Source of the DNA: an uncultured Alphaproteobacteria bacterium
GTDB lineage: Bacteria; Pseudomonadota; Alphaproteobacteria; RF32; CAG-239
Length of the DNA: 64,000 nucleotides
Assembly (NCBI GenBank): GCA_934229625.1
Contig: CAKQDU010000003.1
Span: forward strand, 64,426-128,425
Reading direction: 5' to 3'
In this document: one piece after another, positions 6,875-52,778 of the stretch
Position numbering within the stretch: position 1 is the stretch's first letter
Layout of the letters: each line of letters opens with the position of its first letter
Made by a program: the position numbers and the translations under genes
The notes under the pieces: model-generated
Told to the model about the DNA's origin: nothing
The model's database searches: none
The model's input: the letters and a program-made list of their open reading frames with translations, nothing else

Positions 6875-7386
6875 TGAACATTCAAGACAAATTAAATGAG
6901 TTGCGCAAAATCGTGGGACGGAAAACATCTGCTGAAAATAATGCTAATGCAGATTTATCGAAGGTGCGTCAAGAGGATAAAACTGAAAGTGATGCCTCAA
7001 ACAATGTAATTAAGCCTATAGAAATCCCTTGCAAAAATTATACTGATGAAAATGGACATTTTGCATATATTGATGTCCAAACAGATAAGGTTGTGCATGT
7101 GAACTTGGAAAGCGAAAAAATTTATACTGAAGATGAAGTTAATCAATTAAGCTTAAAACAAATTACAGACACTTTATCGGATGATTATAAAGAACTGACA
7201 TGGCAAGATGTTGTAAATATTGATACTTTGTATGATAAATTTAACAGACCTGCATTTACATTGCAAGAAGTTGAAGATGCCTTAAAGAAAAAAAATAATC
7301 GTACAAATACAAATGATGAAACTACAAACAGTGGGGACACAACAACCGAAGAAAAACTTATTAGTCAATGGGGACTGCCTTTATAA
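6874..7386 (+). CDS. Hypothetical protein, 170 aa
   Basis: ORF translationally coupled to the previous one (ATGA overlap). No recognisable domain. Confidence 0.4.
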   Translation: MNIQDKLNELRKIVGRKTSAENNANADLSKVRQEDKTESDASNNVIKPIEIPCKNYTDENGHFAYIDVQTDKVVHVNLESEKIYTEDEVNQLSLKQITDTLSDDYKELTWQDVVNIDTLYDKFNRPAFTLQEVEDALKKKNNRTNTNDETTNSGDTTTEEKLISQWGLPL

Positions 7387-7475
7387 AGTTGATAAATTTG
7401 TGACGAATCTTTTTTGTTATAAACATCAATTTTATGCTTTTATTTTACAATGACGTAATTTTTTAACAAAAGTAT

Positions 7476-7504
7476 TTGACAAGCAAAAAAAATTGTCTTA
7501 TTAC
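7476..7504 (+). promoter_or_regulatory. Sigma70-like promoter for tRNA-Gln (TTGACA-17-TATTAC)
   Basis: ttgaca agcaaaaaaaattgtct tattac, ending 23 nt before the tRNA 5' end. Confidence 0.5.
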
Positions 7505-7527
7505 TAGCGTGTGTTTTTGAAGACGAT

Positions 7528-7601
7528 TGCTTCATCGTCTAATGGTAGGACAGCGGATTCTGACTCCGTCAATCTTGGTTCGAGTCCAGGTGAAGCAGCC
7601 A
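7528..7601 (+). tRNA. tRNA-Gln (anticodon CUG)
   Basis: Cloverleaf folded by hand. The U1:A72-type acceptor (tgcttca / tgaagca) matches the E. coli tRNA-Gln pattern. Anticodon loop ttCTGac, T-loop cttgg-ttcgagt-ccagg, discriminator G, encoded CCA. Confidence 0.85.
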
Positions 7602-7650
7602 ATTTGATAATATCTCCCTGATTTTTGGGAGATTTTTTTTGTAATTTTTC
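7585..7650 (+). repeat. attL: direct repeat covering the tRNA-Gln 3' end plus downstream sequence
   Basis: A 66-bp segment (the last 17 nt of tRNA-Gln plus its terminator region) recurs at 18646..18710. The only differences are 2 mismatches/indels in the T-runs. Confidence 0.85.
7613..7640 (+). terminator. Rho-independent terminator after tRNA-Gln
   Basis: tctccc-tgattttt-gggaga followed by T8. Confidence 0.65.
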
Positions 7651-7773
7651 TAAAAAACAGCAAAAAAACGGCTGATACACTATAGTGATACACCAAAGGA
7701 ATTTTCAGCACTTCCCCCTGTTTTATGTTTTTATGAATCACCGCAATACTTATCCACAGAAAAGGATTGCATT

Positions 7774-9543
7774 TTGAACGGTCATTCGGGATTATATTTA
7801 AGAGGCTCAAACTATTATTTCAGAGGCAAGATTCCAACATATCTGCATTATCTTGCTCCTACAAAATATATCTTACATTCTCTAAAAACTAACAATTACC
7901 GGAAAGCAGTGATTGAATGTCGCAAAGAAAGTTATAAACTGGGCATAGAAATAGAACTTTTAGGGAATATTGATATGCTTATCAAAAGTGGACGAATTGT
8001 TTTAGATAAGTCGGACATAGACAATATAATCATTTATAAACTGAATCAACTTACCGAAGATTTAGAAAACAATTATGATGATATTATGCTAAAACAATAT
8101 GATAAGAATAAAACGCTCGTTTTCAAAGATATTAAAGATGATGAACTAACGCAAAATAAAAAAGACGCGCAAAATATTGAAGGTGTCTTTAAAGAATATA
8201 TTACAGACTTAAAGGACAGACCTGGTACCCACCATAATGTTATTAAGCAAATCAATAAGATACTTAAAGACAATATATCTCTGATGAACGATATTTCCGA
8301 AATAAAAAGTACGCAAAAAGAATTATATAGTGCTATGCGTGGTGTCGACAAATACATCAATGATATGTTTAACTGTATGGAAAATGATGCCAATCAAAAC
8401 ACTTGGACACATCCGCGCGTAAAAGATTGTATTGCCATTATGAATGCGCAAAAAAGTGAACAATGCAAAAATAACGCCTTTAAAACACCTTGGAAAGATG
8501 TGTTTGCCGAATATTTACTGACAAAAAAGCGGCAATCAATCAAACAATTAAATGAGAAAAGCCTGAAGAAAGAAGAAACTTGCATTGATACTTGTTTTAA
8601 ACTTGTAAAGAAAAGTTATGTTGAAGACTTGAATTACAAAGATTGCAAAAAGGTTTCCAGAGACATTTTTAATCTTCCGAAAAAATGGGAAGAAAAGAGC
8701 CTCAAAAAAGGCATATCATTAGAGGAGATGTTAGCACAAGAAAATGAAGACCACATTTCATATTCCACCGCCAAAGGATACTTAATAATATTCCGAAACT
8801 TTTTAATTTATTGCAAGAAAAATCACTATATTGATACAGTATTATATGAAGAAGTTGATATTCCAAAGCCTAAAGATAAGCATTGCAGAGCCGGATTTAG
8901 CGAAAATGAACTAATTAAAATATTTAACCCTAAAACATATCCGAAAAGGATTAGTATTGATAGGTTCCATAATTTCTACATTCCGTTAATAGCCCTTTAT
9001 TCCGGTATGAGATTGGGAGAAATCTGTCAACTCTATGTTTCTGATGTGGTAAAATACGGCAAAAATCTATACTATTTTAATATTACAGATGAAAGAAAAG
9101 ACCAACATTTAAAAACAAAGCAATCAAAACGAATCGTTCCAGTACATCCGATGCTTTTGAGTATGGGATTTTTAGATTTAATAAAACAAGCCAAAGAAAA
9201 GCAAGAAGAACGGATATTCTATAAACTGAAATACTCTGTCAAGAATCACTATGTCAATGCTGTCAGCAACTGGTTTCAATATTATAGCAAGAAGATTGGA
9301 ATTGATGACCCTGACAAAGTATTTCACAGTTTTAGGCATACGGCAAAACAACATTTAAGGGATTGTGGCGTTCCGCAGGAATATCAAAATGCCCTTTGCG
9401 GGTGGAAAGGTACCGACACCGGAGAAACCTCATACGGTGGAAATGTCCCGTTTGAAAAACTATATGAGTATATTTCTATGCTACAATATCCATTTTTAGA
9501 AAAGACACTAAAGAAATTAAAGAAACAGAATAAAATCAAATAA
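7774..9543 (+). CDS. int: Tyrosine recombinase / phage-type integrase
   Basis: N-terminal arm-binding-type motif GLYLRGSNYYFRGKIP. C-terminal catalytic region with R...HSFRHT...Y (RHRY tetrad). Confidence 0.85.
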   Translation: MNGHSGLYLRGSNYYFRGKIPTYLHYLAPTKYILHSLKTNNYRKAVIECRKESYKLGIEIELLGNIDMLIKSGRIVLDKSDIDNIIIYKLNQLTEDLENNYDDIMLKQYDKNKTLVFKDIKDDELTQNKKDAQNIEGVFKEYITDLKDRPGTHHNVIKQINKILKDNISLMNDISEIKSTQKELYSAMRGVDKYINDMFNCMENDANQNTWTHPRVKDCIAIMNAQKSEQCKNNAFKTPWKDVFAEYLLTKKRQSIKQLNEKSLKKEETCIDTCFKLVKKSYVEDLNYKDCKKVSRDIFNLPKKWEEKSLKKGISLEEMLAQENEDHISYSTAKGYLIIFRNFLIYCKKNHYIDTVLYEEVDIPKPKDKHCRAGFSENELIKIFNPKTYPKRISIDRFHNFYIPLIALYSGMRLGEICQLYVSDVVKYGKNLYYFNITDERKDQHLKTKQSKRIVPVHPMLLSMGFLDLIKQAKEKQEERIFYKLKYSVKNHYVNAVSNWFQYYSKKIGIDDPDKVFHSFRHTAKQHLRDCGVPQEYQNALCGWKGTDTGETSYGGNVPFEKLYEYISMLQYPFLEKTLKKLKKQNKIK

Positions 9544-38884: not shown

Positions 38885-39416
38885 AATAAAAATTTTAGAA
38901 AATAAATAATAAAATTAACAAAGCAATTATATAAATTTAGAAGATTTTGTCAAGTTGTATCTTGCAATTTGTCATAGCAAAATATAAATGTTGCATTTTT
39001 ATTTTGCAGTTTTGTGTAACATTTCAATAGGGAGTATTATAGGCAATGCAAATATTGCAAAAAGTAGTGAACGTTATAAAGAAAATGCAAATTAAAAAGT
39101 GCAACTTTGTTTTATTTAGCTTGATTTTCCCAAACAATACTGTTATAAAATTTAACGTCCGGTGCTGATATCACTGGACGTTCTTTAATTCTGAAAGGGT
39201 TAAACCCTAGCTTTAACCATTTTCTAAGTTAAAGGTAACCTATTTTTGCTTTAAAGTCAAGACCTAAAGTCAAAACATAGCAAATTTAGGCGGGGTTTAT
39301 CCCTTTCGCAACTGCTCGGATGAGCTGAAAGGTGAAAGATGATAAACTTGAGCAAAGTTTTGAGCATTATTATATATTTGCTTAAAATCATCATTCTGTT
39401 AATGAAATAGTATGGT

Positions 39417-39451
39417 GAGGCGGAGTTTTCAAGCTCCGCCCTTTGTATTTT
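39417..39451 (+). terminator. Rho-independent terminator in an ORF-free region (orphan; candidate sRNA 3' end)
   Basis: gaggcggag-ttttcaag-ctccgccc followed by tttgtatttt. Confidence 0.5.
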
Positions 39452-39858
39452 AGAGCCAATCGGCAACAGTTTTAGATATGTAACCAGAATTAACAAATTG
39501 CCTGAATATGCTAAAAATAGGGGAAAATTTAACATATAAGTTAAAGTGATGTCTGAAAAAAGTCTGAAATCAGACTCTAAAAAAAGTCTGAAGAATTATG
39601 TTGAAATAGAGAAACAAAAAAAAGTCTTGCAAGCTATTGATTCGCAAGGCTTTTGTGATGGCAGGGCCGGAGAGCTTGTTATATTCCTACTCTTGCAAAC
39701 AAGTTTGCGGCGAGCAGTGCCTTTCGCGTCGCAGCGGCTCAACCGTCGCTGCAGCTCGGTTTTGCCGGCTATCCGCTTCGAACTCTCTTATCGAGTTCGC
39801 TTCTTTCGGCCTTAAAACAAAAAACACCCATTCTTGCGAATGAGTGTTTTTAATTTTA

Positions 39859-39945
39859 TGGTAGGGCCGGAGAGAATCGAACTCTCAAGACATTGCTGCC
39901 ACCAGATTTTGAGTCTGGCGCGTCTACCAATTCCGCCACAACCCC
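39859..39945 (-). tRNA. tRNA-Leu (anticodon CAA), class II with long variable arm
   Basis: Reverse complement: GGGGTTGTGGCGGAATTGGTAGACGCGCCAGACTCAAAATCTGGTGGCAGCAATGTCTTGAGAGTTCGATTCTCTCCGGCCCTACCA. Anticodon loop ctCAAaa, T-loop gagag-ttcgatt-ctctc. The acceptor stem needs 3 G·U pairs, which is unusual. Confidence 0.7.
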
Positions 39946-40084
39946 ATAAAAATTACACTACGTTAATATATCATATTTTTTCAAGTGTCAAGACTTTTTT
40001 TGCATTTTTTATAAATATTTTTGCTTTGCATTTGTTTGTAGCTGTGTTATACTCTTTGCCAGTTGATAAAAAATTGAGGTTACA

Positions 40085-41608
40085 GTGGAAAATTTAGAGC
40101 ATCAGGCTTCGGTTTTATTTGGCGAAAAAGAATATAAAAAAGCTTTGGAAATCTACCAACTTTTGTTGCAGGGAAGTCCAAAGACAGAAAAATATGCAAT
40201 CGCCTGCGGAAATTGCTTTGATGCACTTGGAAACAAAGAAAAAGCTATAGAACTGTATGGTTATGCCCTGAAACTTAATAAAAATTCTGAAGCATCACTC
40301 TTAAATCTTTCTACAATAAATTATGAAATCGGAGAATATGATAAATCGGCGGATTTTGCTCAGAAGGCTTTACAACAAAATCCTAAAAATATGACGGCAT
40401 GGCAAAATCTTGCCAATATTGCTTTTTGTCGCGGTAGTTATGAAACTGCTCTGACATATTATCAAAAAATGTATGAGCAGAATAATCATAGTTATATTGC
40501 AATGATTAACCTCGCTAATACTTATTATTCTTTAGGAAAATATGTTTTGGCTCTGGAATTTGCTAAAAAATCTTTAGAGCGGCATCCGTCAAGCGTGGTT
40601 GCAAATATGATTTCCGGCAATGCTTTGGTCGCAATGCAAAAATATGAAAAAGCCATAGATAAATATCTGCGTGCTTATGAATTAGATGAGCATAACCGCG
40701 AAGTTTTAAATGCTTTAAGCGAAACATATCATTCATTAAATGATTGGGAAAATTGTATTATGTTTGCTTGGAGATATGTTAAAACGGCGCCGGAGCAAAC
40801 TGATGACATAAATTTAAATTTTGGTTATTTATTATATGAATGCTTTTCTGAAAAAAGCGAAGACTTGGCTCGTAAATATGCTACAAAATGGCTGAATTTT
40901 TTCCCGAATAATAAAATTGTGCAGCATATGGCTTGCGCTCTGACTAACGGACACGCGCTTTTAAATTCGGACAGCCATTATATTAAAGCTACATTCGATG
41001 CGTTTGCGCAAGATTTTGATGAAACCTTAAAATCTTTAGACTATCAGGCGCCGTCTCTTATTGAATGTGAGGCAGCCAAACATCTTAGAACTTCGGTTTT
41101 TAAGGGATATCATATATTGGATTTGGGATGCGGTACCGGTTTATGCGGCGAAAAAATGAAAAAATTTGCTTCTCGCAAAGGGCTGATTGGCGTTGATTTG
41201 TCTGAAAAAATGCTGGAACAAGCTGAAACGAAAAAAATTTATGCGCAGTTGATTTGCGATGATATTTGTCATTATATGGAAACGACGGAGTATTATTTTC
41301 ATGTGATTGTAGCGTCTGATGTTTTGACTTATTTCGGTGATTTAACAAAAACATTTGTTCGTGTTTCTAAATCGTTGACCTCTGGAGGGATGTTCTTTTT
41401 TACTATATCTGAAAATCATTATAACGAAGATGATTTTTTTATGGCGCCAAGCGGACGTTTTCTGCATAATCCAAACTATGTGGAAAAGGTCTTAAAAAGC
41501 GCCGGTTTAAAAGTTTTGAATTGTGAACGTCATATTTTACGCAATGAAGCGGAAAGTCCGGTATATGGCTATGTGTTTGCCGCGGTTAAACCTGATTTGA
41601 ATAAATAG
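40085..41608 (+). CDS. TPR-repeat protein fused to a class-I SAM-dependent methyltransferase domain
   Basis: N-terminal TPR repeats (…AIELYGYALKLNKNSEASLLNLSTINYEIGEYDKSADFAQKALQQNP…). C-terminal motif I ILDLGCGTGLCGEKM plus motif II/III region VIVASDVLTYF. The ORF-track start at 40085 is a GTG. Confidence 0.7.
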   Translation: MENLEHQASVLFGEKEYKKALEIYQLLLQGSPKTEKYAIACGNCFDALGNKEKAIELYGYALKLNKNSEASLLNLSTINYEIGEYDKSADFAQKALQQNPKNMTAWQNLANIAFCRGSYETALTYYQKMYEQNNHSYIAMINLANTYYSLGKYVLALEFAKKSLERHPSSVVANMISGNALVAMQKYEKAIDKYLRAYELDEHNREVLNALSETYHSLNDWENCIMFAWRYVKTAPEQTDDINLNFGYLLYECFSEKSEDLARKYATKWLNFFPNNKIVQHMACALTNGHALLNSDSHYIKATFDAFAQDFDETLKSLDYQAPSLIECEAAKHLRTSVFKGYHILDLGCGTGLCGEKMKKFASRKGLIGVDLSEKMLEQAETKKIYAQLICDDICHYMETTEYYFHVIVASDVLTYFGDLTKTFVRVSKSLTSGGMFFFTISENHYNEDDFFMAPSGRFLHNPNYVEKVLKSAGLKVLNCERHILRNEAESPVYGYVFAAVKPDLNK

Positions 41609-41618
41609 AAATACGAAT

Positions 41619-42335
41619 ATGAAAAAAATTTGGCTGTGTCTGATTTTGGTGTTTTTTGCGGTGTCGCAGGTTTCGGCTAAAGAACCTCCGATTATCAGAC
41701 AAAACAAAATCAGACAACAGCAGATTCTGAACTATGTAACGCATGTTCCGTTGCCAGCAGTAAAAAATGCACGCTCTCTAGCTGTTTATTTAACTAAACC
41801 ATTTAATAATAAAATAGAAAAAATGCAGGCAATTGCTTATTGGATTGCCACGCATATAGCTTATGATAGCTATAAATTTAATGGTGTTCCTAATCTAAGA
41901 AATATGAAATATCATTATGATGTTTTTAAGGCTCGTACGGGAATATGCATCGATTTTGCAAAATTATTTCAGGAAATGTCGTTATATGCCGGCATACGCG
42001 GTGTGAATATTGTTTCAGGCTTTGTTGTTGATACAAAATATTTTAAGGATAAATACAATCCGAAACAGTTTGAAAATGCTCATGCTTGGAATACGGTGAA
42101 TATTAACGGCTATACTTATTACATAGATACAACATTTATGGCTACGCAAACTATTGCAGTAAAAAATCAGAGCGGTTTTAATCAATGGAGTCATAAACAG
42201 GAAATTATCAAGCGTTCTCGTACAAATAGTATTGTAAAATCAACTTCAGATATTCGTTATTACTATTTTTTATTCACGCCTCAGGATGAAGTGCGTAAAT
42301 TGAGAACACATCATTTTGTTGTGAATGCTGATTAA
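41619..42335 (+). CDS. Secreted transglutaminase-like cysteine protease family protein
   Basis: Signal peptide MKKIWLCLILVFFAVSQVSA. Cys-His-Asp arrangement GICIDFAKLF ... HAWNTV ... YYIDTTF is typical of the transglutaminase-like superfamily. Confidence 0.6.
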   Translation: MKKIWLCLILVFFAVSQVSAKEPPIIRQNKIRQQQILNYVTHVPLPAVKNARSLAVYLTKPFNNKIEKMQAIAYWIATHIAYDSYKFNGVPNLRNMKYHYDVFKARTGICIDFAKLFQEMSLYAGIRGVNIVSGFVVDTKYFKDKYNPKQFENAHAWNTVNINGYTYYIDTTFMATQTIAVKNQSGFNQWSHKQEIIKRSRTNSIVKSTSDIRYYYFLFTPQDEVRKLRTHHFVVNAD

Positions 42336-42775
42336 AGCAATTCTTTTATTTTAGCGCTTAAATCTGCGTCAATTCTAACCGGTCTTTTCAAAGCTAAACT
42401 CATATGAATCAGTTTGACTTCAATTTTAGTCAGCAGAGTGTCGCCGCGGTAAATTTCTTGCAGCACACGCAAACTGGCGCCGCCTACTTCTAAAATTTTA
42501 CAGGTAACGACCAACGTGTCATCTAAACGAGCCGAGGCGATATAGTCAATGTTACAAGAGCGAACGACAAATCCGGTCTGTCCGGCTTCCAGATTTTTTT
42601 CCTGATTAACTCCCAATGTGCGAATAAACTCTGTGCGAGCGCGTTCGGCAAACTTTAGGTAATTGGCATAATAAACAATTCCGCCGGCGTCGGTATCTTC
42701 ATAATAAACCCTCACAGGATAAGCAAAAATTTTGTTTTCTATTTGTCCAAAAGCAGGGATAGTTTTTTCAAACAT
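42332..42775 (-). CDS. ybgC: Tol-Pal-associated acyl-CoA thioesterase YbgC (4HBT fold)
   Basis: YPVRVYYEDTDAGGIVYYANYLKFAERARTEFIR: 4-hydroxybenzoyl-CoA thioesterase-like hot-dog motif. Sits immediately downstream of ruvB. Confidence 0.8.
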   Translation of the reverse strand: MFEKTIPAFGQIENKIFAYPVRVYYEDTDAGGIVYYANYLKFAERARTEFIRTLGVNQEKNLEAGQTGFVVRSCNIDYIASARLDDTLVVTCKILEVGGASLRVLQEIYRGDTLLTKIEVKLIHMSLALKRPVRIDADLSAKIKELL

Positions 42776-42777
42776 TG

Positions 42778-43833
42778 TTAATCCTCCAAAGTTTCCAAAA
42801 GTTCATATTGCTTGGTTTGTTTCGCCGGCATATTGACGCCTAAATAACGATATCCGAGCTGTGAGATAATACGCCCGCGCGGTGTGCGCTGTAAAAATCC
42901 GAGTTTCAGCAAAAACGGTTCCACAACTTCTTCAATAGTATCGCGTTCTTCCGAAAGAGCGGCCGCCAAAGTATCGGCGCCAACCGGACCTCCGCCGTAG
43001 TTTTTGACAATGCAATTCAAATAGCGGCGGTCAAAAGCGTCAAGCCCAAAATCATCAACATCCAAACGTTTAAGCGCTGTGTCTGATATATGCGAATCTA
43101 TGATTTTTTGTGAAGATACAGCGCCAAAGTCGCGTACGCGCCGCAATAATCGTCCGGCGATACGTGGTGTTCCGCGAGAACGTTTGGCAATTTCCATAGC
43201 TCCGTCTTCCGATATTTCTATGTTTAAAAGTTTTGCGTTACGCTGCACGATTTTCTTTAAGTCTTCATGCGAATAAAAATCCAAACGCAAAGGGATGCCA
43301 AAACGCTCACGCAAAGGAGTGGAAAGTAAGCCGGAACGAGTGGTGGCGCCAACCAATGTGAAAGGCTGTAGGTCTATGCGCACCGAGCGAGCGGAAGGCC
43401 CTTCGCCGATAATCAAATCCAGCTGAAAATCTTCCATCGCCGAATATAAAACTTCTTCAATAGCCGGATTTAAGCGGTGTATTTCATCAATAAACAACAC
43501 ATCGTTGCGTTCCAGATTAGTCAAAATCGCCGCTAAATCGCCGGATTTAGAAATCATTGGCGCCGAAGTAGCGCGGAAACCGACGCCCAGTTCTTTGGCT
43601 ACAATAGAAGAAAGCGTGGTTTTACCAAGTCCCGGAGGACCAAATAACAGCACATGGTCAAGCGCTTCTCCGCGTTGTTTGGCGGCGGCTATAAACACTT
43701 TTAAATTATCGCAGACATCACGCTGTCCCACAAAGTCGTCCAAACTTGTCGGACGCAGACTAACCGGATTGTTGCCGATTTGTTCGTCTTCTGCTTGGAC
43801 TTGCGGACTTACGATTCGCGTATCATCTTTCAT
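42778..43833 (-). CDS. ruvB: Holliday junction branch-migration ATPase RuvB
   Basis: [13 protein letters not shown] (Walker A), DEIHRL (Walker B), sensor and winged-helix domains. 351 aa. Confidence 0.95.
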
Positions 43834-43836
43834 GGT

Positions 43837-44484
43837 CTAAAATTCCTTTTGAACAAATTCTTTTAAGGCAAGGCGGATAAGCGTCGGCACATTGGCGTCC
43901 GGATTTTCTGCCATAGCTTTAGATACGGCGCGATAAGCCTCCAAACGTTGATAGCCAAGATTAACCAGAGCCGAAATAACATCTTCGCTTTTAGAATAAT
44001 CGGCATCTTTGGGCAAAACAACCTGAGCCGCCGGAGCGCCCTCTATAGCTTCATCAGCATTGGTGCCGGAAATTCCGACCGGAATTGTAACGATTTTATC
44101 TTTGAGTTCGGTAACTATGCGAGCGGCAAGTTTCGGCCCCACGCCGGAAGCGCGGCAAAATGATGTTTTATCTTGCGCGCTGATAGCTTGAGAAAGCTGC
44201 GCCGGAGTTAAAACTGACAAAATGCTCAAACAAACTTTAGCTCCCACGCCTTGCACTTTTGTAAGAGTTGTAAACCATTCTTTTTCCCAAGCATCGGCAA
44301 AGCCAAACAGCGAAAGGCTGTCTTCACGCACCACCATTTCTGTCAAAAGTGTGGCTTCCTGTCCTTGAACCAATTTGCCAAGAGTTTTAGACGAGGCAGA
44401 AACAAGATAGCCTACGCCGTTCACGTCTATAATACAATAATCATCGCCGATTGTGTCAATCAGCCCGCGTAATTTAGCAATCAT
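43837..44484 (-). CDS. ruvA: Holliday junction DNA helicase subunit RuvA
   Basis: MIAKLRGLIDTIGDDYCIIDVNGVGYLV..., HhH pairs (GVGAKV, GVGPKLAARI), C-terminal RuvB-interaction domain. Confidence 0.92.
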   Translation of the reverse strand: MIAKLRGLIDTIGDDYCIIDVNGVGYLVSASSKTLGKLVQGQEATLLTEMVVREDSLSLFGFADAWEKEWFTTLTKVQGVGAKVCLSILSVLTPAQLSQAISAQDKTSFCRASGVGPKLAARIVTELKDKIVTIPVGISGTNADEAIEGAPAAQVVLPKDADYSKSEDVISALVNLGYQRLEAYRAVSKAMAENPDANVPTLIRLALKEFVQKEF

Positions 44485-44597
44485 CTTTTTACAATCCTTT
44501 TGTTGGCATTAGACTAATGGAAATATGCGTGCAACGCAAGAGTTTTGTTGCTTTTCTGCAAAGCTTAATTTATAAAGGCGGTATTGGATGAAATATA

Positions 44598-45164
44598 ATG
44601 GATTTTTTAGAAATCATATGCCTCGGTTTGGCGTTGGCAGCAGATGTTTTCGGCATAGCGTTTGCCTATGGGTTGATTATTAAGCGTCATCGGTGGATTA
44701 TGGCATTGCGTTTGTCGGGAACTTGCGGTGTGATGCAGTTTGTTATGCCGTTGCTCGGTTTTGCCGGAACAGCTGTTATCAGCGCGTGGATTTCCCGTTT
44801 TGACTATATTTTGGTGTTTTTAGTTTTTACCGCATTGGGTATAAATGTGATTCGTGAGGCAATAGAAGAAAATGCTGAAGAAAATATTGTCAAAAAACGT
44901 AAACGTCTGAGCTGGAAAGTGGCTTTTACCATTGGAATTGCCACCAGTATTGACGCGTTGGTCAGCGGCACGATGCTCTATTTAACTAAAACACCATTGC
45001 TAAAGTCTTCGCTGATTATCGGCGTGGTGTCGTTTGTCATAGGTTTGCTTGGTTTTAATTTAAATTGCTGCTTTAAGAAAATACCGGAAAAATATTTGCA
45101 AATTATTGCCGGCTTGGTCTTAATCGGATTTGGACTGAAGAATCTCCTGTCGCATTTTATTTAA
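44598..45164 (+). CDS. mntP: Manganese efflux pump MntP (DUF204/YebN family)
   Basis: 6-TM protein with the duplicated ...ALAADVFGIAF... / ...TIGIATSIDALVSG... half-repeats characteristic of MntP. Confidence 0.7.
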   Translation: MDFLEIICLGLALAADVFGIAFAYGLIIKRHRWIMALRLSGTCGVMQFVMPLLGFAGTAVISAWISRFDYILVFLVFTALGINVIREAIEENAEENIVKKRKRLSWKVAFTIGIATSIDALVSGTMLYLTKTPLLKSSLIIGVVSFVIGLLGFNLNCCFKKIPEKYLQIIAGLVLIGFGLKNLLSHFI

Positions 45165-45193
45165 AAGATACTTAAAAGCGGTAGACTCAAAAG

Positions 45194-45460
45194 ATGTATG
45201 TTTTTAAACTCTTGCTTGTTAAAAGTTGGAGTTTTTTTATGATTCAAAAGCAAGTTGGTAAAAGAATAAAAGAAATCAGATTATCTCTAAATTTATCTCA
45301 AGAAGATTGTGCCTTAAATTCCGGCCTTAATAGAACATATTTTGGTAGTGTAGAACGTGGCGAGCGGAATATATCTGTAATAAATTTAAATAAAATATGT
45401 AAATCATTTAAAGTTTCATTAAAAGATTTTTTTAATTCAAAACTTTTTACCGGAGAATAA
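45194..45460 (+). CDS. R-M controller (C) protein, XRE-family HTH
   Basis: MIQKQVGKRIKEIRLSLNLSQEDCALNSGLNRTYFGSVERGERNISVINLNKICKSFKVSLKDFF: classic C-protein HTH. 4 nt upstream of the next ORF. Confidence 0.7.
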   Translation: MYVFKLLLVKSWSFFMIQKQVGKRIKEIRLSLNLSQEDCALNSGLNRTYFGSVERGERNISVINLNKICKSFKVSLKDFFNSKLFTGE

Positions 45461-45464
45461 TAGT

Positions 45465-46004
45465 ATGAATATTTCAGAATTTAGAGATGGTATTTTTGCC
45501 TTGAGAACCAGAAGATTTGGCAATGTTGCTGAAATAATGATAAAGAAAATCTATCAATTAGAAGATTCGCATACTTTAGAATATGACAAATTTGATAAAG
45601 AAAACAATAAAAGAATTGAAATTAAATTTTCAACAGTAATGAAAGCAAATGGTAGAAAAATTGATGAAAAAAGTGTTATAGACCAATGCTTAAAAGCCAA
45701 TTTAGCTAACCGTGCAATGAAATATGCAGACATTGAAACATATTCTTTTGACTGCAATATTCAGCAGATAAAATGTGCAGAATTTGACATATTATACTAT
45801 GGTTTGTTTTTTGCTGATAAAATTTTGGTTTTCAAAATGACCTCTGAAGAAGTTAAAAATTGTCAAGGATATAGTAACAAGCAACATCGTAATAATGAAG
45901 GTGAAGGTCAATTCCATATTAATAATGATACATTAAAATATCATTTGGAAAACTACTTCATAAAAGATTTGGATTATGAAAGGTTATATAACATTTTGAA
46001 ATAA
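45465..46004 (+). CDS. Candidate type II restriction endonuclease (unknown family), 179 aa
   Basis: Sits between the C-protein gene and a convergent, overlapping DNA MTase gene, the canonical position of the R gene in C-R/M systems. No family recognised by eye. Confidence 0.45.
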   Translation: MNISEFRDGIFALRTRRFGNVAEIMIKKIYQLEDSHTLEYDKFDKENNKRIEIKFSTVMKANGRKIDEKSVIDQCLKANLANRAMKYADIETYSFDCNIQQIKCAEFDILYYGLFFADKILVFKMTSEEVKNCQGYSNKQHRNNEGEGQFHINNDTLKYHLENYFIKDLDYERLYNILK

Positions 46005-46748
46005 ATCTGATTTTATGCAGTTATCTATACGTTCTTTAGCAATGTTAAAATAATTTTCATCCAACTCAATACCGATAAAATTTCTGTTCAAATTTTTACA
46101 AGCTACACCGGTGGTGCCGGAACCCATAGTAAAGTCTAAAACAGTATCTCCTTCGTTGGTATATGTTTTAATAAGCCATTCCATTAATGATACAGGTTTT
46201 TGTGTCGGGTGTAAGTTTGATGTTAAAATATCTCGTTTAAAATTGACAATTTGCAAAGGGTATCTGATGCCTTTGTCTTGATATTCATTAGGCTTGCGGT
46301 TTTGAGAATCTATTAAAACTCCAAGTTTACCGTTTTTAATTTTGTTAGTTCTTAAAGGACCATCATATTTAACCATTTGCGGATTATATGTACATTGTTT
46401 GTTATAAAAGACATTTATAGTTTCAATTACTTTTGCCGGTCTTTTTTTTAACTGAAAAATATTTGTGGCTCGTTCTTTTTGCCAATAAATATCATATTTA
46501 TATTCATCAATATTTGAAATTCGCAGATAACTGTTAAAAGGTTCGTTGCCAAATAACAGAATCGGACTGTTTTCTTTTCGGATTTCTTTTAGGCGCTTCC
46601 ACATTTTATCAAGCGGAATAATAGTATCCCATGAGCAAGCTGTTGTTCCATAAGGAGGGTCTGTTATGATTGCATCTACTTTTATACCTTTTTTAATTAG
46701 TTGGTTCATAACGTCCAAGCAATCACCGTGAAATAAATCTATACACAT
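45984..46748 (-). CDS. DNA methyltransferase, N4/N6 class (beta group, DPPY motif)
   Basis: Motif IV IITDPPYGTT near the N-terminus. Motif I ...GDTVLDFTMGSGTTGVACKNLNRNFIGIE near the C-terminus (beta-class order). Convergent 21-bp overlap with the putative R gene. Confidence 0.8.
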   Translation of the reverse strand: MCIDLFHGDCLDVMNQLIKKGIKVDAIITDPPYGTTACSWDTIIPLDKMWKRLKEIRKENSPILLFGNEPFNSYLRISNIDEYKYDIYWQKERATNIFQLKKRPAKVIETINVFYNKQCTYNPQMVKYDGPLRTNKIKNGKLGVLIDSQNRKPNEYQDKGIRYPLQIVNFKRDILTSNLHPTQKPVSLMEWLIKTYTNEGDTVLDFTMGSGTTGVACKNLNRNFIGIELDENYFNIAKERIDNCIKSDLFQNVI

Positions 46749-46826
46749 ATCACAACCCTAAAAGAACTTAACAAGAATGACCGTATTATATAAAATATGG
46801 CAGGTTGTGTCAATAAGTTCATTGTG

Positions 46827-47684
46827 CTATGACAGTTTTATTTTGTGGCTTTGCGCTTTTTGCGCCAACCAATTATAAATGCGCTGCATTGATATATCTC
46901 CGTTGGCGGCAAAGTCTTCGGGATGCCATTGAATGCACAGGATATTTTTTTCGGCGTTTCCCCAAGATTCCGGAATATTGTCTTCAGTTCGGGCATAAAT
47001 CGTTAGTTTGCTGTCAGAAGCATAAGGCAGCATGGATTCCGTATGGCGGGAATTTGTTTCAATTTCTTCTGTCTGCAAAATGTCATACAGCGGTGATGGA
47101 TTTTTAATTAAAACTTTGTGCGCGTCTAAAATCTTGGTTTTATGTTCAATATCTGTATTTGTATATTGTTTGGTGTTGCGGTACATTTTCATACCCAGCA
47201 CGCCGCCAATCATTTGCGCACCGGCACAAATGCCCAGCATTGGCAGATGTTCTTTCAAGGCAGTGGCAATACAATTCAAATATGCGGCGGCTCGCGGTTC
47301 GTATTTTGTCGAGGCATTTGGTGCGGCGTCGCAATAAAATTGCTCAGGGGATGGAAATCTGCCGCCCGGCAAAATCAAGCCGTGAATTCCGTTCATTTGC
47401 TCGGCGCAGGAGGAGTAGGTCAAAAAACGGATGTTTACGCCGGATTGTAAAATAGCGCGGGCGTAGTTGTAGTCAATAGTATAGTAATTTTCATCGCGTC
47501 CCAGCAAAAAAGCAACAGTCGGTTTGTTATCTTTAGGTGTGTCGGCAAGCTGCTCAATATCCTGAGGAGCTAAAGAAATTAAAGGAATTATGTTTTGTTT
47601 TTCAAATACGTTTATTTTTTCATCGCTGATGCCGTAAGCTTCATATTGCGGCAGATATTCTAAAGTAACAGATTGTGTGTGCAT
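46827..47684 (-). CDS. Class-I glutamine amidotransferase-like hydrolase (C26/PuuD-like), paralog B
   Basis: LPGGRFPSP, LGICAGAQM, WHPED. About 45-50% identical by eye to the 37266..38114 product. Confidence 0.7.
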   Translation of the reverse strand: MHTQSVTLEYLPQYEAYGISDEKINVFEKQNIIPLISLAPQDIEQLADTPKDNKPTVAFLLGRDENYYTIDYNYARAILQSGVNIRFLTYSSCAEQMNGIHGLILPGGRFPSPEQFYCDAAPNASTKYEPRAAAYLNCIATALKEHLPMLGICAGAQMIGGVLGMKMYRNTKQYTNTDIEHKTKILDAHKVLIKNPSPLYDILQTEEIETNSRHTESMLPYASDSKLTIYARTEDNIPESWGNAEKNILCIQWHPEDFAANGDISMQRIYNWLAQKAQSHKIKLS

Positions 47685-47845: not shown

Positions 47846-48622
47846 CTATTTAAGTTTATAGACAGTTATCTGACGAACTTTGAAACGCTCAACAATCATA
47901 CCGGGTTTGGCATTTTCCCATGCAGGTTTATTGTACCATTTTGGGTCTTCATAGGTCTGAAGTTTTACTTTTTGACCATTTGTAAATGTCACTTCTATGA
48001 CAGATATTTTTTTCTTTTCTTGAAAAACAACATCTGTTGCATTGTGCTTACCTTGTTTGTATTCTGTTGCCCAAGTTAAAGATTGTTCTGGTATCCAATG
48101 ATAGATGTTTGCCATAAACTGAGCGTTAGTCCAATTTGTGCCTAGTGTTACTTTTTGAGAATTATATTCAGAGCATAACTTTATTGATTTAATTTTCAAA
48201 AGCAGTCTGTACTGCTTGCTAATCATTTCAACAGTTGCGCCGTCAGAGTATAGTAATTGCCCTTTTGTATATGATCCATATGCCAGTGCAGCATTATAAG
48301 GAGTATATGTTTGCATATATTCCATCGGAGGATTGGTGCATTTTGTCACTATACTTATTTTTTCTAAATATCCATCTCGTTTATAGTCTGCATCAATATA
48401 GGTTAAAGAACCGGAGGAACATAAATACTTTCCTTTATAGCTATGATTTTCTGTTTTAGGAAGAAGCAACATACTCTTTCCCATATAAACAATCTTGGTT
48501 CCTGTTGTCTCGTACGCCCTATCTTTAATTTGTATATTATCCAGACTATAGAATCTGATTTGAGCCGAAGCGTTAAAGTTAAACACAAAAGTCATCAAGA
48601 TAACTAAAAATAATCTCATCAT
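47846..48622 (-). CDS. Secreted hypothetical protein, 258 aa
   Basis: Signal peptide MMRLFLVILMTFVFNFNASA. No recognisable domain. Confidence 0.45.
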   Translation of the reverse strand: MMRLFLVILMTFVFNFNASAQIRFYSLDNIQIKDRAYETTGTKIVYMGKSMLLLPKTENHSYKGKYLCSSGSLTYIDADYKRDGYLEKISIVTKCTNPPMEYMQTYTPYNAALAYGSYTKGQLLYSDGATVEMISKQYRLLLKIKSIKLCSEYNSQKVTLGTNWTNAQFMANIYHWIPEQSLTWATEYKQGKHNATDVVFQEKKKISVIEVTFTNGQKVKLQTYEDPKWYNKPAWENAKPGMIVERFKVRQITVYKLK

Positions 48623-48805: not shown

Positions 48806-49747
48806 ATGAATAACGCATTAATTTTAAATGAAGACTATTTAGAGTTTCATGCAAAGCCAATTCTAAAGTGGGCTGGTGGTAAGGGTATGCTTTTGCCGCA
48901 AATCGCGGATTATTTACCGGCTAAATTGAAATTCGGTGCAATAAAACGCTATATCGAGCCGTTTGTTGGTGGCGGGGCTGTTTTCTTTGAACTGACAAAT
49001 AACTATAATTTGGAGGATGCTTATTTATTTGATGTTAATCCAGAACTGATTATACTTTATAATGTGGTTAAAAATAACGTTGAAGATTTGATTGCTGAAT
49101 TGTCAGTTTTACAACAAGCCCATAATGATGCTCAGGATAGAACGGTCTTCTATTATACTATTCGTGATGAGTATAATCAATTTGATAAAAATATGGATGC
49201 CAATAAATATACAACCGATTTCATTAGGCGTGCGGCTTTAACTGTTTGTTTAAATCGGACTTGCTTCAATGGTTTGTTTAGGGTTAATTCAAATGGGATG
49301 TTTAATGTTCCTATTGGAAAATATAAAAATCCGCGGATTTTGGATGAGAGTAATCTAAGGGAAGTTTCAAAAGCTTTGCAATGCGCAACAATTTTGCAAA
49401 CTGATTTTGCTTCTGCATTGGACTATGTAACTTCGGATACCTTCATTTATTATGACCCACCATATCGACCGATTAACGATAGTTCATTTAATTCTTATGC
49501 GGTAGGTGATTTTGATGATAATGAACAAAGACGTTTAAAAGATGTTTTTGCTAAAGCTAATGAATCGGGAGCTTTGCAAATGCTGAGTAATTCTGATCCG
49601 ACTAATTACAATCCTAAAGATATGTTTTTTGATAGTTTATATCGTGATTACAAGATTCATAGAATTTGGGCAAAAAGAATGATTAACTCCAATCCTGATG
49701 GCCGCGGAGGGGTAAGGGAACTTTTAATTACAAACTATGGAAAATGA
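48806..49747 (+). CDS. Dam-family (DpnM-like) N6-adenine DNA methyltransferase, probable GATC specificity
   Basis: PILKWAGGKGMLLPQI (SAM-binding motif of the D12 class) and YYDPPYRP (motif IV). First gene of a DpnII-type cluster. Confidence 0.85.
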   Translation: MNNALILNEDYLEFHAKPILKWAGGKGMLLPQIADYLPAKLKFGAIKRYIEPFVGGGAVFFELTNNYNLEDAYLFDVNPELIILYNVVKNNVEDLIAELSVLQQAHNDAQDRTVFYYTIRDEYNQFDKNMDANKYTTDFIRRAALTVCLNRTCFNGLFRVNSNGMFNVPIGKYKNPRILDESNLREVSKALQCATILQTDFASALDYVTSDTFIYYDPPYRPINDSSFNSYAVGDFDDNEQRRLKDVFAKANESGALQMLSNSDPTNYNPKDMFFDSLYRDYKIHRIWAKRMINSNPDGRGGVRELLITNYGK

Positions 49748-50529
49748 AAGAAATTTATAATTTATATTGTGCAGACTGTATTGAAAAATTAAAAGATTTT
49801 CCGGAAAATACTTTTGATATGATTTTTGCGGATCCGCCTTATATGCTTTCAAACGGCGGTATAAGCTGTCATAATGGACGTGTTGTTTCCGTTAATAAAG
49901 GCGATTGGGATGAAAGCAAAGGTTTAAAAGAAGATTTTGAGTTTCATAAAAAATGGCTGGAGGCTTGCAGGCGGGTATTAAAGCAAAATGGTACGTTGTG
50001 GGTATCAGGAACATATCATAGCATTTATCAATGTGGCTTTGCTATGCAAGTATTGGGCTATCATATTTTAAACGATATTTCGTGGTTTAAGCCAAATGCA
50101 AGCCCAAATATGTCATGCCGATATTTTACTGCTAGTCACGAAACTTTGATTTGGGCAAGAAAAGATAAGGCATATCGTCACTATTTTAATTATGATTTAA
50201 TGAAAAATGGCGATTATCCAAAAGATTTTATCAAAAAGCCTAATGCACAAATGCGTAGTGTGTGGGCTATCGGAACTCCAACACCAAAAGAAAAAGTGTT
50301 TGGCAAACATCCTACACAGAAACCGGTAGAATTGCTGGAAAGGATTATTTTAGCTTCAACAAAAGAAAATGATTTGATTCTAGACCCGTTTATGGGAAGC
50401 GGTACAACCGGAGTAGTTGCAATGAAACTAGGCCGTCAATTTGTAGGAATTGAAAAAAATCCGAAATTTATTGCATTGGCAGACAGAAGAATTTTTGATG
50501 CATATCAACACAAGGAGAATAAAGAATGA
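49744..50529 (+). CDS. Second DNA methyltransferase of the DpnII-type system (DpnA-like, N4/N6 DPPY class)
   Basis: IFADPPYMLSNGG near the N-terminus. PFMGSGTTGVVAMKLGRQFVGIE near the C-terminus. Start overlaps the upstream stop (ATGA). Confidence 0.8.
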   Translation: MKEIYNLYCADCIEKLKDFPENTFDMIFADPPYMLSNGGISCHNGRVVSVNKGDWDESKGLKEDFEFHKKWLEACRRVLKQNGTLWVSGTYHSIYQCGFAMQVLGYHILNDISWFKPNASPNMSCRYFTASHETLIWARKDKAYRHYFNYDLMKNGDYPKDFIKKPNAQMRSVWAIGTPTPKEKVFGKHPTQKPVELLERIILASTKENDLILDPFMGSGTTGVVAMKLGRQFVGIEKNPKFIALADRRIFDAYQHKENKE

Positions 50530-51869
50530 ATGAAATTGAAAACTTTGTGGACCAATTATTATCATTTGCGCAACGTGATACAAATGGTAAATTGACAATA
50601 TCTACCATTCAAAACATTATAAAAGAAATGAATAGTTTTTTATATACAAAATCTGGTAAGATTGGAAAAACTAATATTTTGGGTGAGAGTTTTGAATATT
50701 TGTCCGATTTTCATAAATTCTGGGAAGAAAACCATAAAGTTATCCTAAATGCTAAAATCAGCGAAGAACAATGTATAAAAGTTGCGAATTCATTACATGA
50801 TGTATTTATACGTACTAAAGGACAAGTCTTCTCTCAATTATGGTCAACAGGCAATGTATCAAATGAAAATATCTGTAAAATTAGATTTCTTACAGCTAAT
50901 CAGGATTTTAAAGGTTCTCGTAATTTTCAGAAATTTTTAGATATTTTTAACACAGATAACTCCATATTTGATGTAAGAAAAATAAATGAAGCTCCTGATG
51001 ATTTTGTTAAATCTATCAAAATTTCTAACTTATCTCAGAATGATAAAAGAATTAGTTATGCTTTAAAGGCTGCACAATTTATTATGAAAAATGAATGTAA
51101 ACCTATTGAACTTGCCAAGAAATTTAATAATGATGCAGACCTACTACGCAAAGCTTTAATAAATGAACAAGGAATGGGATATGGAAACAAAAAGGCTGAT
51201 ATGTTTATACGAGATATGTTTGTGTTGAAAATATGGCCGGATCTTATAAATTTTGATAAGATAGATGTTGCTAGTGATATAAATACAGTAAAAATAGCGT
51301 TGAGAACGGGAATATTAAAAACAGCAATACCTCTACTTTCAAGCTTTTTAGATATTTTTTGTTATCAGTATGGATATATTGATGAAATGTCAGCGAATGC
51401 TTGGAGATGTGTTTGGAAAATATGGAATGATACATATCCTACTGAAACTGTAGCAAGTCCTGCATTATTAGATTTTTTTATATATAATGTAGTAGGTAAG
51501 CAGTTTTGTAAGGATAATTTATATATTTTTGAAGGTGATAAATGTCATCATACATTTAAATGGCATTCAGCTCGTAACAAAACATGCCAAGAGTGTTATA
51601 GAATTGGTAAACTTAATTCGAAAGCTCATAAAATTAATCAAGTTTTACCATGCACAGATCCCAATGGTGATATTGCAATATGCCAAACAGAATTTGTAAA
51701 ATCAGAAATAGCTAATCCTAATTATACTAATTGCCCTTTTAAGGATATTTGTATCGCTAATGGTACTACTAGATTACAACCTCCGAAATCTATAAGTATT
51801 AAGGGGCAAACAGGTTGGATATCAGCATATGCTGATAAAGATAGTGGTGGCGGAGGTTTAATGGCGTAA
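50526..51869 (+). CDS. Hypothetical 447-aa protein inserted between the methylases and the endonuclease of the DpnII-type operon
   Basis: Translationally coupled on both sides (overlapping stop/start). Contains a Gly-rich loop GMGYGNKKADMFIRDM that may be helix-hairpin-helix-like, and a C-terminal cluster of 8+ Cys (CHHTFKWHSARNKTCQECY...PCTDPNGDIAICQTEF...CPFKDIC). No confident family assignment. Confidence 0.4.
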   Translation: MNEIENFVDQLLSFAQRDTNGKLTISTIQNIIKEMNSFLYTKSGKIGKTNILGESFEYLSDFHKFWEENHKVILNAKISEEQCIKVANSLHDVFIRTKGQVFSQLWSTGNVSNENICKIRFLTANQDFKGSRNFQKFLDIFNTDNSIFDVRKINEAPDDFVKSIKISNLSQNDKRISYALKAAQFIMKNECKPIELAKKFNNDADLLRKALINEQGMGYGNKKADMFIRDMFVLKIWPDLINFDKIDVASDINTVKIALRTGILKTAIPLLSSFLDIFCYQYGYIDEMSANAWRCVWKIWNDTYPTETVASPALLDFFIYNVVGKQFCKDNLYIFEGDKCHHTFKWHSARNKTCQECYRIGKLNSKAHKINQVLPCTDPNGDIAICQTEFVKSEIANPNYTNCPFKDICIANGTTRLQPPKSISIKGQTGWISAYADKDSGGGGLMA

Positions 51870-51878
51870 GGAGAATAA

Positions 51879-52778
51879 ATGATGAAAAATAATTCTGCTT
51901 TTAAAAATATTTTAAATTGTAATAATGATGATGAAGTATTTTCGTATCTGATTAGTACTCTAAAAGAGACAATCAAATCGTGGGACTATTTTGTAAATTG
52001 GAAAAAAGTTATTCATAATTACCGCGAAGTTGAACGCTCATTAAATTTATTAAATACTTTGGTTGGTAAAGAAAATATTGAAGAGGAAGCTTTATCACTG
52101 CTTACAGACTATCCTCAAATTATAGGTGTAGTTCCTGCATTATTGGCGGAAAGAGAAAAGAAAATCAGTTTATTGGTTACTCCTAATAATTTTGAGGTCA
52201 GAAGATTTGACTTTTCAAAACCAATGTTGGCAAAAGATGGTGTTTTGTTTTTAAAAGAAAGCGGATTTTTAAAACTTATTTCAGACCGCAATATTAAATC
52301 TATTCCGGATTATTTTATAGGTGTAGAGGTTGGTCTTGATTCAAACGGCCGTAAAAACCGCAGCGGAATATCTATGGAAAATTTGGTTGAATTCTTTGTA
52401 AAAGATATTTGCGGGAGAAATAATTATGAATATATTGCCCAAGCTACTGCAGATAAAATTAAAGCAAAATGGAATAAAAATATTACAGTTACGAAGTCAT
52501 CTAAAAGAATTGATTTTGCAATTAACACGCCTCACAAACTTTATTTAATTGAAACAAACTTTTATGGCGGAGGCGGTTCAAAATTGAAATCTACAGCTGG
52601 AGAATATGCCGATATTTACCATCAATGGACAAATGATGGACACCAATTTATTTGGATAACTGACGGTTATGGCTGGAAAACAACACAACGCCCATTGCGT
52701 GACACATTTAACACGACCGATTATATCATCAATCTTGATATGATACAAAAAGGTGTATTAGAGGAATTGTTGAAATAG
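51879..52778 (+). CDS. DpnII/MboI-family type II restriction endonuclease (GATC)
   Basis: From memory, the blocks IGVEVGLDSNGRKNRSGISMENLVE, YLIETNFYGGGGSKLKSTAGEY and WITDGYGWK match R.DpnII. Ribosome-binding site aaggag. 299 aa. Confidence 0.75.
   Translation: MMKNNSAFKNILNCNNDDEVFSYLISTLKETIKSWDYFVNWKKVIHNYREVERSLNLLNTLVGKENIEEEALSLLTDYPQIIGVVPALLAEREKKISLLVTPNNFEVRRFDFSKPMLAKDGVLFLKESGFLKLISDRNIKSIPDYFIGVEVGLDSNGRKNRSGISMENLVEFFVKDICGRNNYEYIAQATADKIKAKWNKNITVTKSSKRIDFAINTPHKLYLIETNFYGGGGSKLKSTAGEYADIYHQWTNDGHQFIWITDGYGWKTTQRPLRDTFNTTDYIINLDMIQKGVLEELLK

Follow-up and report, generated by a model that had tools for sequence, protein, structure and literature searches.

Introduction

According to a review from 2023, R.PabI is the only superfamily of restriction glycosylases known (PMC10273834), and a review from 2025 adds no further one (PMC12707154). 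Enzymes of the R.PabI family (R.PabI, R.HpyAXII and R.CcoLI) excise the unmethylated adenine from a 4-bp palindrome, with nicking by apurinic/apyrimidinic (AP) lyase activity and a cognate adenine methylase as partner, and their genes form small mobile cassettes of a methylase and a restriction enzyme. Here we describe X447 (hereafter X), a 447-amino-acid (aa) protein encoded in a 64,000-nucleotide (nt) stretch of contig CAKQDU010000003.1 (assembly GCA_934229625.1, positions 64,426 to 128,425 of the forward strand) from an uncultured alphaproteobacterium, referred to below as the window. The gene for X lies in a restriction–modification (R-M) operon of the DpnII type, and the protein and its homologues may be restriction glycosylases with the properties just listed. 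As proposed here, X would differ from R.PabI in its unrelated fold and in its target (GATC, as against GTAC for R.PabI); it also often coexists with a conventional endonuclease, and its activity is a prediction.

The canonical systems DpnII, MboI and LlaDCHI have the gene order dpnM-dpnA-dpnB, and the operon in the window contains all three of their components. Loci of the X family differ from them by a fourth conserved gene, and within the family the order of the genes varies and the endonuclease can be dispensed with. Endonuclease III (EndoIII) and MutY, repair enzymes with the helix-hairpin-helix (HhH) fold, resemble X in predicted fold, in a G-x-G-x-K...D motif and in a Cys cluster C-terminal to the catalytic domain, and MutY is an adenine glycosylase, as is proposed for X. 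There is, however, no significant sequence similarity, the spacing from Lys to Asp is 29 residues in X and 18 in these enzymes, and X is about twice their size and stands in an R-M context, whereas the two [4Fe-4S] enzymes serve in housekeeping repair.

Two further groups of HhH glycosylases bear on X. Qng1 (DUF2419), a queuosine-5'-monophosphate N-glycosylase, shares with X the Lys/Asp pair of the HhH superfamily and a functionally important C-terminus: its C-terminal carboxylate lies in the active site, the DNA cleft is blocked, and the substrate is a free nucleotide (PMC9881137). X, unlike Qng1, is found outside any queuosine-salvage context and is always linked to a methylase; its HhH is predicted to be plain, and it has an additional, Cys-rich domain at the C-terminus. 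Dag1 and Dag2 are HhH-fold anti-phage glycosylases with no sequence similarity to known glycosylases (bioRxiv 10.1101/2025.10.29.685425). In them, as proposed for X, an HhH-glycosylase scaffold has been recruited for defence; as described, they are set apart from X by their target (modified phage bases), their stand-alone integron cassettes and the lack of a methylase link.

Distribution and genomic context of the X family

A search of a large protein collection with X returned 877 homologous clusters at E ≤ 1e-3. Nearly all of the best 120 are ~440-450 aa long, and those that carry a name are mostly annotated as 'hypothetical protein'. In a collection with one genome per species, 79 distinct X loci were found, with 41-94% identity to the protein of the window, in Bacteroidota, Bacillota, Spirochaetota, Elusimicrobia, Akkermansia, Deltaproteobacteria and candidate phyla, and among the archaea in Heimdallarchaeota, Nanoarchaeota, Altiarchaeales and Methanocellales. 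Streptococcus, Lactococcus and the Enterobacteriaceae are not represented among the 79 loci, although streptococci and lactococci are familiar hosts of DpnII-type systems. No matches were found in plasmids, GenBank phages or IMG/VR, and an origin of X as a phage or plasmid accessory gene was dropped on these grounds. Judged by record titles, the hosts look mostly anaerobic (gut, rumen, groundwater and sediment), a bias that may point to a metal cluster in X that is sensitive to oxygen.

The genomic context was surveyed by comparing the open reading frames (ORFs) of each locus with the four proteins of the window operon and scanning unexplained neighbours against Pfam; the counts refer to the 47 loci in which X is flanked by 2.5 kb or more to either side. 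A D12 methylase, an N6_N4 methylase or both lie within a few genes of X, usually directly adjacent, at every one of these loci (47/47), and four loci that had first been scored as methylase-free or as 'X alone' also proved to be methylase-linked after the Pfam scan. The divergent family members P0122, P0147, P0149 and P0179 are methylase-linked as well, while the contig of P0142 is too short to judge. DpnII is also present at 24 of the 47 loci; at least four have in its place a nuclease of the MutH/Sau3AI family (205-234 aa), another nuclease family that recognizes GATC, and about 18 have no recognizable nuclease. Both kinds of associated nuclease point to GATC as the sequence concerned. The loci of this last group are cassettes of only a methylase (M) and X between housekeeping genes, as in the arrangements FtsY/Dam-X/MiaB, Dam-X/SHMT and ThrRS/M-X/enoyl-CoA hydratase, and further ones are M-X/DnaE, M-X/EPSP synthase and XseA/M-X/TlyA-like. 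Packing is tight, with a median of 6-10 nt between X and the R-M gene next to it.

Either methylase class by itself can accompany X, whose constant partner is for this reason a GATC-type methylase rather than DpnII. Since, in addition, canonical DpnII systems work without X, it is X that depends on methylation and not the reverse. The X family is functionally tied to GATC-specific adenine methylases and, as in the known restriction-glycosylase systems, X is linked to, and mobile with, a DNA methylase; its spread over bacteria and archaea spans 41-59% identity. Mirror-tree correlations among the gene pairs (0.39-0.50) are too alike to pick out a co-evolving partner of X.

An earlier note on this DNA, written from the sequence before any search, had presented X as a gene added to a DpnII operon. 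This description is misleading: DpnII is found at only about half of the loci, the methylase is the constant partner, and the gene order of the window is a minority one, with DpnA-X-DpnII at 3 non-redundant loci against 16 with DpnII-X-DpnA, 8 with Dam-X-DpnII and 7 with Dam-X-DpnA. The survey of other loci that the same note had suggested did recover X repeatedly, and always beside a methylase where enough flanking sequence was available. Two explanations that the note had named as refuting it were rejected. X as a stand-alone gene inserted by chance does not agree with the survey, in which X never lies outside a methylase context; nor is X a split or N-terminally extended part of DpnII, which matches its Pfam model over the full length by itself and to which the fold of X is different.

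A second type of N6_N4 methylase accompanies X at L009 (8231-8974), L013 (3257-4015), L015 (3546-4292), L017 (8216-8962), L051 (4308-5984), L060 (4401-5975) and L076 (4559-5986). This protein is either ~247 aa or 475-558 aa long and so divergent that BLAST does not link it to the DpnA-like enzyme of the window. It matches the Pfam model in two disjoint segments, and the C-terminal portion of the profile aligns near the N-terminus of the protein, which suggests a permuted order.

Some loci have other defence-type genes near or within the cassette. At L033, a GmrSD type IV enzyme (7376-9040) is inserted between X and the DpnA-like methylase, and at L008 a ThsB-like TIR protein (8227-8751) follows DpnII. 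DUF5343 and HEPN_Swt1 are encoded downstream of the cassette at L001 (10104-11328), and HEPN-domain proteins upstream of it at L048 (4473-4883) and L054 (4254-4673). In Acetivibrio straminisolvens JCM 21531 (L057, 4029-4960), the DpnII homologue is split in a frameshift-like manner into overlapping ORFs of 123 and 236 aa, and the adjoining X gene is intact (450 aa).

Predicted fold and conserved residues of X

No match to X was found in Pfam, NCBIfam, PADLOC or PHROGs, and comparison with PDB sequences (phmmer and profile) gave only chance matches to DrrA. A profile search of 1.84 billion representatives returned 162 matches, apparently whole or fragmentary members of the family, none of which formed a bridge to any known family, and searches of open-access papers found no description of the family.

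An AlphaFold model of X, built on 25 homologues, is confident (predicted local distance difference test score, pLDDT, 86.5; predicted template modelling score, pTM, 0.85), with low confidence over the C-terminal tail. The model has the two-lobed helical fold with a central HhH that is typical of the HhH superfamily, and X also carries the Gly-rich hairpin, the Lys of the HhH (a mark of the bifunctional enzymes) and the invariant downstream Asp that go with it. In a Foldseek search of the PDB, the top match was Qng1/DUF2419 (E ~2e-4, probability 1.0, ~305 aligned columns, target-normalized template modelling (TM) score ~0.56), at 10-13% sequence identity. The next matches were MutY (probability 0.92) and the archaeal 8-oxoguanine glycosylase AGOG (probability 0.82), and the DNA glycosylases in the list have E values of 0.25 or worse. 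Against models of viral proteins, the top match was an endonuclease III (E 7e-3, probability 1.0, target-normalized TM score 0.65), followed by an amino acid:DNA transferase domain (probability 0.94, TM ~0.3). No PabI-family structure, with the HALFPIPE fold, is among the PDB fold matches listed for X, all of them HhH enzymes.

Alignment with E. coli EndoIII (2ABK) by hhalign gave the expected register, with Lys222 of X on Lys120, the lysine of the Schiff base, and Asp251 on the catalytic Asp138, a pairing that comes from this single alignment, the E value of which (0.088) is not significant. The Pfam model Q_salvage (PF10343) does not match X of the window, which falls outside the Qng1 family as this model defines it. 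Divergent members of the X family gave sub-threshold Pfam matches to DUF2400 (7e-5, at 23 bits where the cutoff is 25), Q_salvage (7e-3) and Ogg-HhH (0.09), and those to DUF2400 and Q_salvage fall on the region of Asp251. The model supports the placement of X within the HhH glycosylase superfamily by structure, though it lies outside every curated sequence model.

The Gly-rich GMGYGNKKADMFIRD segment and the C-terminal cysteines of X are real and conserved. Among the 25 homologues, the residues G218, G220, K222, K223, R229, D230, D251, C328, H342, C354, C357, C376, C403 and C409 are invariant, and G218, K222, R229, D230 and D251 remain so even in members at 22-35% identity; the invariance of G220 is established among the 25 close homologues. 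The predicted hairpin carries G218-x-G220-N-K222-K223, with the Lys222/Lys223 codons at 51189-51194. Further downstream, the segment 328-409 holds six Cys and one His that are invariant among the close homologues. Its middle is variable, being absent in short variants and expanded in long ones, while C403-x5-C409 is kept throughout, and Zn-ribbon Pfam matches are found in some members of the family; the segment is likely a metal-binding, zinc-ribbon-like insert. The spacing of its cysteines differs from the C-x6-C-x2-C-x5-C cluster loop of EndoIII and MutY. The C-terminal tail, PPKSISIxGxTGW...GGGG-x-x-x-COOH, is also kept in members at 22-35% identity.

Both the Gly-rich loop and the C-terminal Cys cluster seen by the earlier note are conserved among the 25 homologues, and its suggestion that X is HhH-like and glycosylase-like is supported by the structure prediction, the fold searches and the invariant Gly-x-Gly-x-Lys...Asp.

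GATC avoidance around X loci

The window contains 9 GATC sites, compared to 165 expected from a second-order Markov model and 214 expected from base composition (observed/expected ratio, O/E, ~0.05), by far the lowest O/E among the 16 palindromic tetramers. Four of the nine sites (5819, 6329, 18895, 20316, 48273, 49595, 49831, 51240 and 51657) lie inside the R-M operon itself.

Across the X loci, GATC was counted in the chromosomal flanks, with the cassette masked and ~6 kb taken on each side of X. The O/E was 0.37 for loci that contain DpnII (30 loci) and 0.40, with a median of 0.31, for loci with only a methylase and X (29 loci, 240 kb). The two classes do not differ (Mann-Whitney p = 0.72), and GATC is the most depleted 4-bp palindrome in both. 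In the 12 methylase+X loci checked with Pfam, 54 GATC sites were observed against 363 expected, and 3 of the 12 have no site in 6-11 kb. For comparison, the O/E was 0.88 over 50 kb of E. coli K-12, in which Dam is an orphan and GATC is not restricted. Palindrome avoidance is a classic footprint of restriction and not of methylation alone. The undiminished avoidance of GATC where no candidate effector other than X lies near the methylase lends indirect support to a GATC-directed, DNA-damaging activity.

The operon and its surroundings

The gene order Dam-like methylase, DpnA-like methylase, 447-aa protein and DpnII was recognized at the outset, and the ORFs with their Pfam and PDB matches bear it out (Table 1). 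The three canonical components (DpnM-like, DpnA-like and DpnII) all give strong matches, and the operon departs from the three-gene dpnM-dpnA-dpnB cassette in that X sits between the second methylase and the endonuclease. Of the overlapping stop and start codons that were thought to join all four genes, those at the Dam-like/DpnA-like and DpnA-like/X junctions are present as ATGA; between X (stop codon TAA, 51867-51869) and the endonuclease (ATG at 51879) there is no overlap but a 9-nt spacer with GGAG. Scans for promoters and terminators gave background level only.

Table 1. Features of the X operon, of the X gene and of a second R-M system in the window
Feature	Position	Strand	Basis or remark
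Dam/DpnM-like (D12, alpha-class) N6-adenine DNA methylase, 313 aa	48806-49747	+	PF02086 8e-60; TIGR00571 dam 8e-83; PDB DpnM 2dpm 5e-50
DpnA-like (N6_N4, beta-class) DNA methylase, 261 aa	49744-50529	+	PF01555 4e-63; PDB CcrM catalytic domain 1e-61; 'DpnA' chain 5hek 2e-27
X447 (X), uncharacterized 447-aa protein	50526-51869	+	No family match; predicted HhH-glycosylase fold, Cys-rich insert, conserved C-terminal tail
Predicted HhH of X, residues 204-233	51135-51224	+	Helix 204-213, loop, helix 221-233 (predicted)
Asp251 codon of X, candidate catalytic aspartate	51276-51278	+	VASDxNT...ALRTG motif; invariant in both alignments
Cys/His-rich segment of X, residues 328-409	51507-51752	+	C328, H342, C354-x2-C357, C376, C403-x5-C409
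Conserved C-terminal tail of X	51774-51866	+	LQPPKSISIxGQTGW...GGGGLMA-COOH; G441, G444 invariant
GGAG ribosome-binding motif	51870-51873	+	In 9-nt spacer 5' of the endonuclease gene; read from sequence
DpnII-family type II restriction endonuclease (GATC), 299 aa	51879-52778	+	PF04556 4.6e-92, profile positions 2-278 of 278
Helix-turn-helix (HTH) controller-like protein (second R-M system)	45194-45460		PF01381
179-aa ORF (second R-M system)	45465-46004		PADLOC Type II restriction endonuclease model, 1e-11
Convergent N6_N4 methylase (second R-M system)	45984-46748	-	

The G+C content of the operon is ~31%, compared to ~45% in the adjacent pheST/proS genes. Two other contigs, L004 and L037, match the window at ~91% nucleotide identity over the operon, pheST and downstream housekeeping genes, so that the operon is resident in its source lineage and no one-off. 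These two contigs carry conflicting taxon labels (Bacteroidaceae bacterium and Eubacteriales bacterium), and at least one label of a metagenome-assembled genome bin is probably wrong. An unrelated, second R-M system lies ~2 kb upstream of the operon (45194-46748) in a patch of 28% G+C. The region 38971-46833 has no counterpart at the same position in L004 and L037. An ORF of 258 aa with a hydrophobic N-terminus and no family match (47846-48622, minus strand), directly upstream of the operon, is missing from these otherwise collinear relatives.

Discussion

We propose that X is a methylation-sensitive, GATC-directed restriction glycosylase/AP lyase on an HhH scaffold, a reading to which we give slightly less than an even chance. 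X would bind duplex GATC and flip out the unmethylated adenine, Asp251 would cleave the N-glycosidic bond, and Lys222 would form a Schiff base through which the abasic site is nicked by beta-elimination. Such lesions, placed at neighbouring base pairs in the two strands, would lead to a double-strand break whose ends religate poorly, while N6-methylation by the Dam-like methylase, the DpnA-like methylase or both would block excision and protect the host DNA. In the window, X and the phosphodiesterase DpnII would work side by side, both governed by the same methylation, and in many other genomes X would stand alone as the restriction component. Stated for the family, and held just as tentatively, the proposal is that of a second, structurally independent class of restriction glycosylases, HhH-fold and probably metal-cluster-bearing, which excise the unmethylated adenine of GATC and nick the abasic site: in anaerobic bacteria and archaea, many methylase+X cassettes would have no restriction component other than such an enzyme, which in the window would add a second restriction activity to that of DpnII.

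The proposal draws on the predicted fold, the invariant candidate catalytic residues, the obligate link to methylases of the GATC type, the cassettes that lack a nuclease, the avoidance of GATC, and the other defence genes beside or inside some cassettes. Two-gene cassettes of a methylase and X suggest that X can itself be the restriction partner. The initial description of X as a glycosylase-like accessory factor is accordingly half retained: glycosylase-like agrees with the predicted fold, and 'accessory' probably undersells X, given these cassettes.

Several points weigh against the proposal. The alignment of X with EndoIII is not significant, and no HhH-GPD Pfam model (PF00730 or related) matches X of the window. 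The closest structural match, Qng1, acts on a free nucleotide and has its DNA cleft blocked, and the invariant C-terminal tail of X recalls the active-site carboxylate of Qng1. The median isoelectric point of the family, 6.6, is not that of a strongly basic DNA binder, and a mean pairwise identity of ~0.55 makes X more conserved than restriction enzymes usually are. X would be redundant where DpnII is present. The avoidance of GATC around methylase+X loci may stem from other GATC systems elsewhere in these genomes, of which the counts cover ~6 kb on each side of X. Finally, the activity of the family is a proposal from sequence, predicted fold and context, from which we infer the substrate, the inhibition by methylation and the lyase step.

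Some of these points would be accommodated if X were a Qng1-like nucleotide or nucleoside N-glycosylase, which would hydrolyse N6-methyl-(d)AMP or N6-methyl-deoxyadenosine released by turnover of methylated DNA, without acting on DNA itself, either keeping N6-methyladenine (m6A) out of the nucleotide pool or removing N6-methyl-dAMP as a danger signal. An adenine methylase would make the substrate of such an enzyme, which would explain the dependence of X on methylases; the Qng1 structures are by far the best fold matches, well ahead of the DNA glycosylases in E value, divergent members show the sub-threshold Q_salvage matches, the conserved C-terminus recalls Qng1, and the near-neutral isoelectric point fits. 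We nevertheless consider this unlikely. The HhH of X is predicted to be a plain helix-loop-helix, without the beta-hairpin insertion of Qng1, and a string of invariant or near-invariant basic residues (R120, R132, K174, R175, K222, K223, R229, K256, R260, R294, K329 and K421), together with the Cys-rich domain, exceeds the needs of a nucleotide pocket. A sanitizer of the nucleotide pool that is blind to context should also join Type I, Type III and other m6A methylases, yet the partners of X are only of the D12 and N6_N4 classes typical of GATC systems, and canonical Dam and DpnII systems do without one. The avoidance of GATC in hosts with only a methylase and X would also be left unexplained.

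The avoidance bears as well on the idea that X is a Vsr-like repair glycosylase, removing a lesion or mismatch that arises as a by-product of GATC adenine methylation (for example a deaminated or mis-alkylated base) and in this way guarding the host genome. A role in preserving the site predicts that GATC is kept, yet its O/E is ~0.4. Repair genes linked to methylases are known from vsr-dcm and from Mig.MthI with M.MthTI, and such a role would suit both the HhH-glycosylase fold with its Lys and Asp and the occurrence of X with methylases in the absence of any nuclease. We know, however, of no established mutagenic by-product of N6-adenine methylation comparable to the deamination of 5-methylcytosine, the great majority of Dam, DpnA and DpnII systems are without X, and a methylase with a repair enzyme provides neither defence nor addiction, so that the wide horizontal spread of a tight cassette would be hard to explain. 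The probability that we attach to it is as low as that for the Qng1-like enzyme.

It is a little less probable again that X is a modification-dependent defence glycosylase of the kind of Dag1/Dag2 or Brig1, which would excise hypermodified phage bases (for example 7-deazaguanines) as a counter-counter-defence carried on an R-M operon. Such an enzyme needs no methylase, yet X is linked to one at 47/47 loci and in members of 22-35% identity, and two-gene methylase+X cassettes are common. HhH-fold defence glycosylases that act against phages modified with 7-deazaguanine do exist (bioRxiv 10.1101/2025.10.29.685425), the best structural match of X, Qng1, binds a 7-deazaguanine base, and some X loci have other defence genes as neighbours; the Dag proteins as described are, however, compact, single-domain and located in integron cassettes.

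Very unlikely, finally, is a non-destructive role for X, either in base exchange or transfer on (methylated) GATC or in regulation of the operon, as a sensor devoid of catalysis. In its favour, non-hydrolytic DNA chemistry is known on the HhH scaffold, and an amino acid:DNA transferase domain ranks second among the viral fold matches, but that match is weak in TM score, the cassettes hold no biosynthetic or donor-substrate genes, the invariant Lys and Asp fit hydrolysis or lyase chemistry, and a regulator would not need 447 highly conserved residues.

X is better framed as a conserved, methylase-dependent family with the HhH-glycosylase fold and, probably, a new class of restriction glycosylases. 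Even if the restriction glycosylase reading is wrong, ~880 clusters with no Pfam or other model and with an obligate methylase partnership would need a function. If it is true, restriction by glycosylase chemistry has evolved more than once, beyond the single superfamily of R.PabI, and a second, unrelated and much more widespread family has been built on the HhH scaffold of DNA repair, in gut, rumen and groundwater bacteria and in several archaeal phyla. The family could then supply a new reagent that is specific for GATC and sensitive to methylation. Many GATC methylases that look like orphans would become complete R-M systems, and X could help to explain the extreme avoidance of GATC in the genomes that bear it.

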